This document shows, piece by piece, positions 48,231-54,263 of a stretch of 64,000 bases of DNA. Position numbers and translations under genes: made by a program. The notes below the pieces were generated by a model. It searched no databases, was not told the DNA's origin, and saw only the letters and a program-made list of their open reading frames with translations. How positions within the stretch are numbered: the first letter of the stretch is position 1; the number at the start of each line of letters is the position of its first letter. The stretch comes from Thermoplasmata archaeon (GTDB taxonomy: Archaea; Thermoplasmatota; Thermoplasmata; RBG-16-68-12; JAFNFQ01): assembly GCA_041489255.1 (NCBI GenBank), contig JBGPQV010000002.1, forward strand, positions 160,001-224,000. The letters are read 5' to 3'.

Positions 48231-49241
48231 TTACTGTGTCTTCTGCTCGGTCTGTTGCGCCGGCCCCTGCTTCCCCGGTTCAGGCGGCGGGACCGGCTGC
48301 TGCGGCACGACCGGTTGCGCGGGTGCGTATGGCGGGTACATGGGATATCCGGGCATCATCGGCACCACCTGCACAGGTATCCAGACAACCGGCGATGCCT
48401 GCGATGCCGGCGGACGCGTTGGCTTGAGCTGTCCTCCTTTGATCCGCGTCGATACGTTCTGATACAGCAGGAGGAAGATGATGAAGGTCACGAGGCCAAA
48501 AGCCCCGGCCATGAGCGTCGGCCAGCCCGTCGACGTGGTTAGATATGAGCTGGAATAGCTGTCGGTGAGCCTGTCGATGATACTTGGCAGCTGCAAGAAC
48601 GCGAACGCGGACACGATCCCCGGAGTGGCGGTCCCGAGCCCTGCCGCGAGATAGAGATGCCGATCGTATTTCTGGTCCACGAGCCCTTGCACAGGAAGGA
48701 CGATCGCCATTGCAGTGAAAGCAGCCACAAGAGTGCCCATCACGGCTCCAGCTGCGACGATACTATAGTAAGTCCCGGGGTCCGGATGACCGTAGTAGAA
48801 GAAGGAGGTCTGGAACTGGAGGGCCAGCGTGATGATTGAACCCACGACGGTGGTTACGATAGCTGCGATTATCAGACCCATCGCGACATTGACGTGCCGC
48901 GCATGGTTTGGGCTGAATTCATTCCGACCGCCATAGAGGTAGCCGAACCCGACAAGATAGAAGACCAAGACCAGGATTTCAAGGATTATGGTGATGGCGG
49001 TGTAGGCTAACACCATGATCATGGCGGAATAGTTGTAGTACGAACTCGTTGCCAAGCTATCGAGATTGACCGCACCCCAGACACCGTACACAATCTGCGA
49101 AATCAGCACTCCAAGGTAGATGGCGAATGCGATCGTGCACCACCGAATACCCTTCGGCGAGTTAGGTTCTTTCTGGAACGGAGCGCCAATCGGACCGTAC
49201 ATCGGATAAGTCTGCATCTGCAACCCAGCCTTGCTCTTCAT
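48231..49241 (-). CDS. Multi-pass membrane protein with Pro-rich C-terminal tail
   Basis: About 6 TM helices; start uncertain (49241, 49223 or 49217). Confidence 0.75.
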   Translation of the reverse strand: MKSKAGLQMQTYPMYGPIGAPFQKEPNSPKGIRWCTIAFAIYLGVLISQIVYGVWGAVNLDSLATSSYYNYSAMIMVLAYTAITIILEILVLVFYLVGFGYLYGGRNEFSPNHARHVNVAMGLIIAAIVTTVVGSIITLALQFQTSFFYYGHPDPGTYYSIVAAGAVMGTLVAAFTAMAIVLPVQGLVDQKYDRHLYLAAGLGTATPGIVSAFAFLQLPSIIDRLTDSYSSSYLTTSTGWPTLMAGAFGLVTFIIFLLLYQNVSTRIKGGQLKPTRPPASQASPVVWIPVQVVPMMPGYPMYPPYAPAQPVVPQQPVPPPEPGKQGPAQQTEQKTQ

Positions 49242-49341
49242 CGTTCCCCGGATATATAACGGTGACGAGGACATGTCGACGCAGGGATTGCACAGGTTAA
49301 TCAAACTCGGTTCGGTAGTCAAGGTCGAGGTCGCGTTCCAA

Positions 49342-50070
49342 ATGAAGATTGCAGGCGCGATGGACTTGACGGGGATGGCGGATCTTGACCGTGCGGTGGA
49401 GACGTTCAAGCGTGTGGCGGTGAAGTACAATGCACTGGGCGTCGACGTATCGCGGCCAATTGTGTTGGTTGTCGAGAACCTGCCCATCATGGGAGCGACT
49501 GAGCCTGCAGGCGATGCGTTCCGCCTCCACATAGGCATTCAGGCCATGTCGTCCGGGATGCTTGACGGGCTCATCGCGCATGAAGTGGGACACATGTATC
49601 GGATCCAGCAAGGACATCCTTCGCATTCTGCCGATGTGCACGGGCGTTTACTGAGCACCGTCGGCGTCCGAGGGAAGGGGGGAAGGGAGTTCCTCGGGGT
49701 CGCGCGCCTCGCGCTCAACCACGTCGAAGACATCTATGCGGATGACCTGGCGTTCGACGTGATCGGAAGCGAAAGAGCCCGAATGTTCTTCACGGACTGG
49801 ATCCGCCGTTCTACCGTGAGTCGTGGCAAGCGATGGGAGACTGTCGCGAACGAGGTCACGGTGGCGTTCGGCCTCGGAAACATGGAGCGACATGGAGTCC
49901 AACCGGAGGATATAGTCTTGCGGGAGACGCGGGAATTCTCCGGAAGAGCCGGGCTCAACCTTCTTCCGAAGCTTGTGGCCGCCTACCGGGACCTGCCGAA
50001 GACCGGCGATGTTGAGACCGCGATCCGAGAACTGCTCATCGATGTCAGGGACGAAGGCGCTGGTCGATAG
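49342..50070 (+). CDS. Zincin-like HEXXH protein (DUF5781-like)
   Basis: LIAHEVGHMYR...HPSH, NHVEDIYADD; start uncertain. Confidence 0.75.
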   Translation: MKIAGAMDLTGMADLDRAVETFKRVAVKYNALGVDVSRPIVLVVENLPIMGATEPAGDAFRLHIGIQAMSSGMLDGLIAHEVGHMYRIQQGHPSHSADVHGRLLSTVGVRGKGGREFLGVARLALNHVEDIYADDLAFDVIGSERARMFFTDWIRRSTVSRGKRWETVANEVTVAFGLGNMERHGVQPEDIVLRETREFSGRAGLNLLPKLVAAYRDLPKTGDVETAIRELLIDVRDEGAGR

Positions 50071-50156
50071 GATCCAGCTCGAGGAATTCCCTGCCCCTCC
50101 GTGCCATCCACATCACAGTCGCACTGCCCCAGATCCTCATTCAAGAAAAATACGGA

Positions 50157-50241
50157 TGCGTGGGCCAGGATTTGAACCTGGGAACCCCTTCAGGACCAGC
50201 ACCTCAAGCTGGCGCCTTTGACCATGCTTGGCAACCCACGC
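50157..50241 (-). tRNA. tRNA-Leu (anticodon GAG)
   Basis: GCGTGGG acceptor, CCAGC-TTGAGGT-GCTGG anticodon arm, variable arm, GGTTCAAATCC. Confidence 0.95.
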
Positions 50242-50250
50242 ATCTTGCGA

Positions 50251-50368
50251 CGCTGAGGGGGAGATCCCCGCCCCGCCGCAGAGCGCGACGGGGATTCGAA
50301 CTCCCGTGGGCCGTGTGACCCACCAGATCTCAAGTCTGGCGCGTTGGGCCTGGCTTCGCTACCTCAGC
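50251..50368 (-). tRNA. tRNA-Ser (anticodon TGA) with 30-nt intron in the T-loop (50265-50294)
   Basis: GCTGAGG/CCTCAGC acceptor, G73, CCAGA-CTTGAGA-TCTGG anticodon arm, long variable arm; T-arm GGGAG-TTCGAA^T-CTCCC interrupted by a BHB intron. Confidence 0.92.
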
Positions 50369-50390
50369 GCGAGTCATCAAGACCAAGGGT

Positions 50391-50406
50391 GTAATTTAAC
50401 TTTGCC
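50391..50406 (-). promoter_or_regulatory. BRE/TATA for the tRNA-Ser/tRNA-Leu pair
   Basis: GGCAAAGTTAAATTAC about 25 nt upstream of tRNA-Ser. Confidence 0.55.
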
Positions 50407-50443
50407 TCGCAGAGCACAAGCGCTGCGATGGTGCGAGGCCGGC

Positions 50444-52069
50444 TCATTTCGTCTCTTTCAGAACCGCCGCATTCAGCTCGAATGCCGCCACGGGATGGCC
50501 GAGACTGTGGGCTTCTAGGACAGCCGGCGCAATCTCGCCGAAGAGCCCCGCATTCCTCCCCGAAACCATCACCGCCGCACATCGGCCGGGGATGAAGTTC
50601 GGGTCGCTCGACGTTTCCAGATCGAATTCGCGGCCGAGGTCACGCATGATGCTCTGCACGAGAGACTTGACCTCGGTGAACGAAGCCTTTGCATGAATCG
50701 ATGCTCCCGCCAAGTGCCTTTCGTTCATCGCCCCCGCCAGGACGTCCTCGACCTCGAATACGCGCTGCGGCAGATCGCGATGGGTGTTCATCGTCAAGAT
50801 TCTCAGCAAAGATGGCAGCAGCGAACTCCTGAGCCCGCTCAATTCCGACGAGACGGGGTTGAGGATTCTCGGTCCGTCGGCGCCGCCCTTGAACGGCGTC
50901 TGCGGATCAACCATCGACAGCGACATGATTTCCTGATAGCCGTAGCCGATCATCATCTCCCTGAGCGTCTGCGAGAACAGAGTGATGCGCGCGGGCGCGC
51001 CAACGGTCGATTCGCGCGGCAGCCTGAGGGGAATCCGGTCATAGCCATGGCCCACCCCGATGTCCTCGATCAGGTCGACCTCGTGAAGCATGTCGACCCG
51101 GTAGGCGGGGATCTGCGCCTCTATCGAATCCCCCGTCACCCTGGCTCCGAACCGCATCTTCTCAAGGCAGCCCGCCGCCTCTTGCGGCGTGATCGACAGA
51201 CCCAGAAGCCTATTTGCGCTGGCGGTGCTGACGTTCCTAACCTTCGCGGCGAGGTCCGGCGTCCTCATCTGCCGGCCGGGCAGCTCGAGCACGATCGATT
51301 CGATCCTGCCTCCCCTCTCGGAGAGCGATGTGGATATGATATTCAACGCGGAGCTGACCGCCCCGAACTCGAGACCGGTGACGTCTATGAACAGGTTCCG
51401 CGTGTCCTCCGTCAGCGCAGTGGCCGTGCCGTTGATTATTGGCGGGAAGGATAGGACAGCGCCTTTTGCATCCTCGATGATCGGATAGAGAGCTTTGCCC
51501 TCCAGGATGTGACCGAACTCTCTGCCCTTCTCGTGCCTCTCGAGGATTTCGAGCAGGGTCAATTCGTCCGCTAGGCCCAGCGGGGTGAACCTGACGCTGT
51601 CAGGCTTCACGGCCCTGAACTTGAAAGGGGGCGTCACCTTGTCAACGTCGTGAATCCCGATCGCGACCTTCTTCCGCCTGCGGCCAATCGTCATGTGCAG
51701 CTTCTCTTGAAGGTCCATCAGAGACTTCACAAGTACGTCCGTCATCTCGACGCCGCGCACGAGCCCGCCAACGGCGTGCGGCCGGACCGCCTCGACGCTC
51801 TTCTCGATGATGAATCGCATGTCCGACTCATGCACATCGAACCGGGGCAGTCCCTTTTCGATATCAAGAACGCCCCTGAGCGCCCGCACAAGCCCCTCGA
51901 CCGAATACATGTCAGGGCGATTCGGGGATATATCGAAACTCAGCTTCTCTCCTTCGATTCCTTCGTCGGCACCGCCAATCATCGACGTCTTCGCCCTGAT
52001 CTCGTCGATCGAGAACCTCTTCCCAAGCAGGTCGATGATGTCCGAATACTCGAAGGATACCACTGTCAT
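50444..52069 (-). CDS. pheT: Phenylalanine--tRNA ligase beta subunit
   Basis: PNRPDMYSVEG, LQEKLH.TIGRRRKKVAIGIHD, SFPPIING, R.D.LHEVDLIED, LRSSLLPSLL. Confidence 0.96.
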   Translation of the reverse strand: MTVVSFEYSDIIDLLGKRFSIDEIRAKTSMIGGADEGIEGEKLSFDISPNRPDMYSVEGLVRALRGVLDIEKGLPRFDVHESDMRFIIEKSVEAVRPHAVGGLVRGVEMTDVLVKSLMDLQEKLHMTIGRRRKKVAIGIHDVDKVTPPFKFRAVKPDSVRFTPLGLADELTLLEILERHEKGREFGHILEGKALYPIIEDAKGAVLSFPPIINGTATALTEDTRNLFIDVTGLEFGAVSSALNIISTSLSERGGRIESIVLELPGRQMRTPDLAAKVRNVSTASANRLLGLSITPQEAAGCLEKMRFGARVTGDSIEAQIPAYRVDMLHEVDLIEDIGVGHGYDRIPLRLPRESTVGAPARITLFSQTLREMMIGYGYQEIMSLSMVDPQTPFKGGADGPRILNPVSSELSGLRSSLLPSLLRILTMNTHRDLPQRVFEVEDVLAGAMNERHLAGASIHAKASFTEVKSLVQSIMRDLGREFDLETSSDPNFIPGRCAAVMVSGRNAGLFGEIAPAVLEAHSLGHPVAAFELNAAVLKETK

Positions 52070-54149: not shown

Positions 54150-54158
54150 GACGAAAAG

Positions 54159-54263
54159 TGGGCCCGGCCAGATTCGGACTGGCGACCTCCCGGTTTCAGA
54201 GAGCCCCCTTTCTCCAGAGGATCCTATCAGCCGGGCGCTCCAACCATGCTAAGCTACGGGCCC
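54159..54263 (-). tRNA. tRNA-Ile (anticodon GAT) with 30-nt intron at 37/38 (54195-54224)
   Basis: GGGCCCG acceptor, CCCGG-CTGATA^A-CCGGG anticodon arm, T-arm GCCAG-TCCGAAT-CTGGC. Confidence 0.92.

Follow-up and report, generated by a model that had tools for sequence, protein, structure and literature searches.

The window analyzed here, a stretch of 64,000 nucleotides from an uncultured Thermoplasmata archaeon, carries a tRNA-Ser(UGA) gene whose T-loop is interrupted by a 30-nt insertion. Two questions follow: whether a serine tRNA gene broken at this point can be functional, and which enzyme would restore its transcript. Passages in reviews describe α4 and α′2 endonucleases as cutting a strict bulge-helix-bulge (BHB) at the canonical position (PMC4090602, PMC4033280, PMC3239211), and they tie non-canonical or relaxed introns to the (αβ)2 and ε2 enzymes (PMC5829648, PMC4033280). 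For Euryarchaeota, one of these accounts gives fewer than 10% of tRNA genes as interrupted, with one canonical intron each (PMC4090602). Against this background, we regard the locus as very probably a functional intron-containing tRNA-Ser(UGA) gene, the splicing of which we infer from sequence.

Organization of the tRNA-Ser(UGA) Locus

All elements of the locus lie on the minus strand, which an earlier note on this DNA had not named:

50251..50368, minus: precursor tRNA-Ser(UGA) gene of 118 nt, with acceptor G1 at 50368 and discriminator G73 at 50251
50295..50368, minus: 5′ exon, tRNA positions 1-59, with the class-II variable arm and U54 U55 C56 G57 A58 A59
50330..50332, minus: anticodon UGA, decoding UCA (and UCG)
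50265..50294, minus: intron, 30 nt, between tRNA positions 59 and 60
50251..50264, minus: 3′ exon, with U60, T-stem strand CUCCC, acceptor strand CCUCAGC, and discriminator G
50392..50399, minus: box TTAAATTA, rich in A/T, preceding the tRNA-Ser 5′ end by 24-31 nt
50157..50241, minus: tRNA-Leu(GAG), separated from the upstream tRNA-Ser by 9 nt; a T5 run follows at 50146-50150

Class-II serine tRNAs are recognized by three features, namely a serine anticodon, a long variable arm, and G73 as the discriminator. The gene has all three, with the variable arm GGGUC-ACAC-GGCCC, the anticodon UGA, and a discriminator G at 50251. The remainder of this class-II tRNA is equally well formed, with an acceptor stem GCUGAGG/CCUCAGC, U8, a 3-bp D-stem, and an anticodon stem CCAGA/UCUGG closing the loop CUUGAGA. 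In a DNA search, the 5′ exon matched its orthologues over query positions 1-79. On reading the sequence, no CCA is encoded at the 3′ end of the gene.

The upstream box TTAAATTA is likely an archaeal TATA-type promoter element; nine further tRNA genes of the same genome are preceded, at a distance of ~23-40 nt, by TTTAA/TTAAA boxes resembling it. Because tRNA-Leu(GAG) begins 9 nt after tRNA-Ser and ends before a T5 run, the two genes would probably be transcribed as a dicistronic precursor. The Ser-Leu tandem is also present in relatives belonging to families f3, f5, and f2 of the order.

A Bulge-Helix-Bulge Motif Built on the T-Arm

Read 5′ to 3′, the interrupted T-arm consists of GGGAG, UUCG, AAU, CCCCGUCGC, GCUCU, GCGGCGGGG, CGGG, GAU, and CUCCC, which can be assigned to the parts of a BHB motif as follows:

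50297..50300, minus: central helix, exon strand UUCG, tRNA positions 54-57, pairing with 50267-50270
50267..50270, minus: central helix, intron strand CGGG
50294..50296, minus: bulge 1, A58 and A59 plus the first intron base U, with the 5′ splice site after A59
50264..50266, minus: bulge 2, intron G and A plus U60, with the 3′ splice site before U60
50271..50293, minus: intron hairpin h′, formed by CCCCGUCGC (50285-50293), the loop GCUCU (50280-50284), and GCGGCGGGG (50271-50279)

The motif is of the strict hBHBh′ type: two 3-nt bulges lie on opposite strands with a 4-bp helix between them, and an outer and an inner helix flank the whole. Its topology is also correct: in the 5′ to 3′ direction, bulge 1 follows the exon strand of the central helix, and bulge 2 follows the intron strand. 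The central helix UUCG/CGGG contains two G-U and two G-C pairs, and the 9-bp intron stem eight Watson-Crick pairs and one U-G pair. The earlier note had given the same precursor string, 5-bp T-stem, central helix with two G-U pairs, 3-nt bulges, and 9-bp stem, and every one of these details proved exact when the minus strand was read. In the canonical case, as described in PMC4090602, anticodon bases 34-35 are part of the central helix, and a bulge is made by bases 36 and 37 and the first intron base; the T-arm motif mirrors this arrangement, and position 59/60 is thus the T-arm equivalent of 37/38.

Chance rarely produces such a fold. Among 200,000 mononucleotide shuffles of the 30-nt intron, 677 gave a complete (4/4) central helix with at least four stem pairs, and 22 gave a 4/4 helix with at least nine consecutive stem pairs in register. 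Energetically, the BHB is not the optimal fold of the T-arm plus intron: constrained to the BHB, this segment reaches -26.5 kcal/mol, 4.5 kcal/mol less stable than the MFE of -31.0 kcal/mol, which uses a register-shifted helix, AUCCCCGUC/GGCGGGGAU, instead. The shifted helix arises from two copies of GGCGGGG that overlap by two bases in the 3′ half of the intron (window 50264-50279, minus strand). In the six other T-loop introns of this genome (described below), the BHB is the MFE fold in three and lies within ~3 kcal/mol of it in the other three.

Two variants, in which a genuine intron is cleaved at 60/61 or a neighboring phosphate, or in which a relaxed-motif route acts on the register-shifted MFE helix, seem to us very unlikely. 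In their favor, U occupies both position 60 and the start of the intron, which means that cleavage at 60/61 would yield the same mature sequence as cleavage at 59/60, and the computed MFE fold, not being the BHB, speaks for the shifted helix. Against a 60/61 cut, however, a motif of 3-4-3 geometry is cut behind the second base of either bulge, according to the rule given in PMC4090602. The shifted helix itself is judged by its conservation, and the relaxed-motif route by the architecture of the endonuclease, both of which are considered below together with the reading that we prefer, namely removal of the intron at 59/60 through the strict BHB.

Recognition by tRNA Callers and In Silico Splicing

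The earlier note had foreseen that standard callers would miss or truncate the gene, and they do. ARAGORN, which finds two tRNA-Leu genes in the window, did not call the precursor, either by default or in intron mode, and the Rfam tRNA model gave it 23.9 bits, below the gathering score of 29, its alignment failing across the T-arm and the 3′ strand of the acceptor stem. Once 50265-50294 was removed in silico, ARAGORN returned a canonical tRNA-Ser(tga) of 88 nt with the T-loop UUCGAAU, in agreement with the earlier note, in which removal of these 30 nt restores UUCGAAU. The sole UCA-reading tRNA found in the genome is thus invisible to both ARAGORN and the Rfam tRNA model, and since the callers are blind to such a gene, annotations of such MAGs will lack tRNAs unless they are made with a BHB-aware caller.

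The intron mode of ARAGORN was rejected as a genome inventory: it made 51 calls, many with implausible introns (hundreds to ~1900 nt) and wrong isotypes. A tRNA-Ile(GAU) gene in the window (54158-54263, minus strand), which has an anticodon-loop intron of ~30 nt, was mistyped in this mode as Ser(gga).

A Sole Copy in the Genome

The failure of the callers, taken by itself, would also fit a pseudogene, i.e., a tRNA-Ser(UGA) killed by a 30-nt insertion while UCA is read by another gene. The genome under study is 96.5% complete, and the 3.5% that is unassembled could hold another Ser(UGA) copy. Yet a DNA search with tRNA-Ser(UGA) gave one match, and the 45 Infernal rows of the genome contain one Ser(UGA) candidate, which is the sub-threshold hit at this very locus. 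The earlier note had made a pseudogene conditional on the lack of a spliced product together with an intact intron-less tRNA-Ser(UGA) elsewhere; neither this DNA search nor the Infernal rows revealed a second Ser(UGA) gene in the 96.5% of the genome that they cover. The remaining serine tRNAs have the anticodons GCU, GGA, and CGA, none of which decodes UCA, and TCA accounts for 6.1 of every 1000 codons in the 1401 open frames that reach 300 codons or more. Both exons are intact, folding into a perfect cloverleaf, and a second genome of the same genus (G001) keeps the gene, intron included, at 98% identity; the sole change in the intron is a U-to-C replacement at the U-G pair of the stem.

The one RNA dataset that matches the locus is a metatranscriptome run, X24 (0.05 of sampled words shared), in which no spliced RNA was seen, a result that by itself would suit a pseudogene. 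Its contig, ~92% alike and covering 50286-50546, contains the upstream region and the 5′ exon and stops 9 nt into the intron, with no splice joint; it stems from a relative, may represent carried-over DNA, and speaks neither for nor against splicing. Given the sole copy, the use of TCA codons, and the compensatory changes by which the BHB is kept across four families (see the next section), we hold a pseudogene to be extremely improbable.

An assembly artefact, or a chimera of the metagenome bin, deserves virtually no weight. The assembly consists of 41 contigs and has 2.7% contamination, which leaves some room for such an error. However, two further DNA runs, from other samples, yielded contigs that cover 48596-50657 and 49654-50937, both including the intron, with 0 differences and no gaps. 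This agreement between independent contigs rules out an assembly artefact, and the same gene in G001 also speaks against one.

Conservation and Covariation across the Order

A DNA search covered 41 genomes, i.e., the genome under study and 40 others of the same order, and found the gene in 30, all of whose loci were read. An insertion at the same T-loop site is present in 15 of the 30 loci, distributed over family f1 (the genome under study and G001), f7 (six), f5 (one), and f2 (six); the other 15, in f4/genus g8 (six), f3 (seven), and f6 (two), have no interruption. A survey of relatives, which the earlier note had proposed, thus places the intron of the Ser(UGA) orthologue at one and the same site in four of the seven families of the order. 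The f2 genes additionally carry an anticodon-loop intron. When an uninterrupted orthologue served as the query against the whole order (79 genomes), 28 genomes of g8 matched over positions 1-88 with at least 95% identity. One Ser(UGA) gene of this otherwise intron-free genus (L126, in genome G064) has an insertion of ~30 nt beside the anticodon stem.

The intron sequence varies between families, and the central helix is complete (4/4) in 14 of the 15 interrupted genes, with 3/4 pairs in the remaining one (L011). Its strands differ as follows:

f1: UUCG/CGGG
five f2 genes and L012 of f7: UUCG/CGAA
four f7 genes: UUCG/CGGA
f5: UUCA/UGGA
L032 of f2/genus g10: UUCA/UGAA

Covariation was assessed on a MAFFT alignment of the 15 intron-bearing loci (14 distinct), taking the T-stem, the central helix, and the first four pairs of the inner helix. 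BHB pairing holds in 97.3% of the cells of the alignment, a figure that drops to 30-72% once the 3′ partners are displaced by 1 to 3 columns. Compensatory changes on both sides occur in four BHB pairs, and the observed covariation score was reached by 0 of 500 shuffles. By element, the central helix is 98.2% paired across the 14 distinct orthologues, with G57-C replaced by A57-U in two rows, and the four inner-stem pairs nearest the bulges are 92.9% paired, with both-side changes in three of the four; the stem pair adjoining bulge 1 is mismatched in three f7 genes.

The rival MFE helix fares differently: it is 52.4% paired on the same 15-locus alignment and is not conserved, while the helices of the BHB are, which argues against processing from the shifted register. 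The GGCGGGG duplication and the register-shifted helix are common to the genome under study and G001 and are absent from the other families. As to its history, the T-loop intron of the order may reflect one ancient gain followed by losses, or repeated gains.

Other tRNA Introns in the Genome and in the Class

A scan of the genome for the 59/60 design returned 35 candidates, nine with a 4/4 central helix, and seven of these nine are tRNA genes. The other two (C11:56644-56782 and C23:21377-21525) were discarded as chance hits in non-tRNA sequence. Besides tRNA-Ser(UGA), the T-loop genes are:

C1:136794-136896, plus: tRNA with a CAU anticodon, 59/60 intron, 4/4 helix
C1:264975-265089, minus: tRNA-Leu(UAA), 59/60 intron, 4/4 helix
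C1:59704-59878, minus: tRNA-Lys(UUU), three insertions, i.e., a 59/60 intron plus D-loop and anticodon-loop insertions
C6:74486-74592, plus: tRNA-Arg(CCG), 59/60 intron, 4/4 helix
C9:2905-3027, plus: tRNA-Ser(GGA), 59/60 intron, 4/4 helix
C29:5065-5190, plus: tRNA-Lys(CUU), 59/60 intron plus an anticodon-loop intron

The T-loop introns of these six genes are 23-38 nt long. ARAGORN called one of the seven T-loop genes before the insert was removed and all seven afterwards, one of them mistyped: tRNA-Lys(UUU), because two inserts were still in it.

Insertions in the D-arm were found as well, two of which are:

C17:18123-18223, plus: tRNA-Val(UAC), D-arm insertion of ~28 nt
C8, ~47.45-47.6 kb, minus: tRNA-Pro(UGG), D-arm insertion of ~28 nt

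The latter gene, for which neither ARAGORN nor Infernal made a call in this genome, was located through a 23-nt blastn-short match to tRNA-Pro(GGG). A tally made by hand from several listings, without a dedicated caller, gives ~47 tRNA genes, ~17 of them interrupted by ~20 introns, half of which lie outside the anticodon loop; at least seven of the ~47 genes have a 59/60 intron and three have D-arm introns. Elsewhere on contig C1 (151194-152582), two tRNA-Arg(UCU) genes with equal Infernal scores lie 1.3 kb apart and enclose a tRNA-like fragment of 57 nt (C1:151798-151854); this arrangement may have been left behind by an integrated element or by a duplication.

Transposition among the seven T-loop introns was looked for in 21 pairwise local alignments, each compared with 500 shuffles, and none was convincing after 21 tests; the pair formed by the introns of the CAU-anticodon tRNA and tRNA-Ser(UGA), matched by 5 of 500 shuffles, was the only one to stand out.

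Beyond the order, 151 genomes of the class were sampled and 17 regions read. Six genomes of family f15 have T-loop insertions in tRNA-Ser(CGA) (L114-L119; UUCA AAR ...). In these f15 genes, the partner strand of UUCA makes at most 3/4 pairs at the 59/60 register, so that the motif may be relaxed or the intron 1-2 positions off. In family f13, the T-loop of one Ser(UGA) gene (L113, genome G146) is interrupted after UUCGAA and its 3′ part does not return within ~100 nt, which could represent a long intron or a split gene, and another Ser(UGA) gene (L128, genome G158) has D-loop and anticodon-loop introns and an intact T-loop. With these f15 and f13 sequences, non-canonical intron positions are thus widespread in the class.

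The Splicing Endonuclease and Ligase

The earlier note had advised determining the architecture of EndA, the splicing endonuclease, and this could be done, since the genome has one EndA open frame (C5:121794-122591), in which PF02778 and PF01974 each match twice. Neither a separate β subunit nor a second PF01974 locus was found in the genome, both PF01974 matches falling within this single frame. Its best relatives among solved structures are the fused EndA of Methanopyrus kandleri (5x89) and the two-unit EndA of Archaeoglobus fulgidus (1r0v, 2gjw), and its closest sequence relatives come from Thermoplasmata, Methanomassiliicoccales, and "Methanobacteriota archaeon" MAGs (165 of 203 candidate stretches confirmed, the best 98% identical). 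By its domain composition and alignment, the protein is a two-unit, α′2-type EndA.

Alignment to the A. fulgidus and A. pernix enzymes shows that the 10-residue crenarchaeal loop is missing; such a loop, inserted between the YYG motif and the LSLIE strand and carrying a conserved Lys, marks the broad-specificity (αβ)2 and ε2 enzymes. In the catalytic unit, the gap from FYG to LSLIE is eight residues both here and in A. fulgidus, versus 18 in the A. pernix α subunit. Conserved between the C-terminal unit and A. fulgidus are FRAY/FRVY, the His of HHAKYL/HSEYL, and VKKEILF/VRKRMVF, and we take the Tyr, His, and Lys aligned in these segments to be the catalytic residues of EndA. The genome also encodes the ligase RtcB (C17:11564-12871, 595 bits), so that both a splicing endonuclease and a ligase are present alongside the interrupted tRNA-Ser(UGA).

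According to PMC3239211, α4 and α′2 enzymes need the strict 3-4-3 hBHBh′. Since the T-arm motif is strict and only its position is unusual, cleavage at 59/60 by the loop-less two-unit EndA of this genome would be expected from motif logic. For the same enzyme, the relaxed-motif route raised above is disfavored, as the loop that this EndA lacks is the one tied to relaxed-motif cleavage (PMC5829648). If cut as expected, the lineage would be a counter-example to the link between enzyme and intron position, though not to that between enzyme and motif strictness.

A Proposed Route from Precursor to Mature tRNA

The preceding observations can be combined into a plausible sequence of events. The tRNA-Ser(UGA) gene would probably be transcribed from its own A/T box, together with tRNA-Leu(GAG). 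In the precursor, the T-stem GGGAG/CUCCC would serve as the outer helix, and the 4-bp central helix would arise from pairing of U54-G57 with the CGGG toward the intron's 3′ end. One 3-nt bulge would consist of A58, A59, and the first base of the intron, the other of the last two intron bases and U60, while the 9-bp intron hairpin would provide the inner helix, yielding a strict hBHBh′ that is a T-arm copy of the anticodon-arm motif. The single two-unit EndA would then cut after the second base of each bulge, and RtcB would join the halves into an 88-nt class-II tRNA with the T-loop UUCGAAU, to which CCA would finally be added.

Whether such introns do anything for their hosts is a separate matter, and we think it unlikely that the T-loop introns of this Thermoplasmata lineage are kept by selection and are not neutral passengers. 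Were they so kept, the T-arm, with its 5-bp stem and UUCRAAU, would pre-form half of a strict BHB and could thus be a second "canonical" site for a loop-less two-unit EndA. The interruption of the segment from the T-loop to the 3′ end might shield sole-copy tRNA genes from integrases that target that segment, or the interruption of the T-loop might order T-loop modification. It would also follow that endonuclease architecture limits the strictness of the motif and not the position of the intron, in which case the textbook co-evolution of enzyme and position would need revision.

Comparison with Known Systems

A full-text literature search found no paper on non-canonical tRNA introns, in the T-loop or elsewhere, in Thermoplasmata or Methanomassiliicoccales, and neither group is mentioned in a 2026 preprint with an Asgard census. 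The tRNAscan-SE 2.0 supplement lists a 139-nt tRNA-Lys(TTT) newly found in Candidatus Methanomassiliicoccus intestinalis, so that such genes are probably already in GtRNAdb. Introns at 59/60 are documented in ARMAN-2 and listed for Crenarchaeota; the mechanism is therefore not new.

In ARMAN-2 (Candidatus Micrarchaeum acidiphilum), 59/60 introns are described in pre-tRNA-Pro(GGG), with a strict hBHBh′, and in pre-tRNA-Cys(GCA), with a relaxed hBH (PMC3239211). These introns enter the T-loop at the same point as the one described here, the T-stem likewise acts as the outer helix with T-loop bases in the central helix, and removal is by EndA, as we propose for tRNA-Ser(UGA). The enzymes differ: the ε2 EndA of ARMAN-2 has three units and a specificity loop and tolerates relaxed motifs, whereas the EndA described here is of the two-unit α′2 type, lacks the loop, and is paired with a strict 3-4-3 motif. 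The tRNA isotype and the lineage differ too.

Crenarchaeota offer a second comparison. Position 59/60 is among their known non-canonical intron positions (PMC4090602), and multiple introns are also on record (PMC8450103). As in Crenarchaeota, especially Thermoproteales, the genome has several BHB introns at non-canonical positions, and as many as three introns share one gene, tRNA-Lys(UUU). Unlike Crenarchaeota, which combine an (αβ)2 EndA and its specificity loop with many relaxed motifs, the present genome is that of a Thermoplasmata archaeon in which all seven T-loop introns have a 4/4 central helix.

The closest enzymatic parallel is the α′2 EndA of A. fulgidus (1R0V/2GJW) acting on 37/38 introns, which shares with the system described here two tandem units, the missing loop, the 3-4-3 hBHBh′, and the cut after the second bulge base. 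In contrast to the canonical 37/38 motif, however, the one in tRNA-Ser(UGA) is built on the T-arm, with its 5-bp stem and 7-nt loop, and not on the anticodon arm; its 4-bp helix therefore uses U54-G57 in place of positions 32-35.
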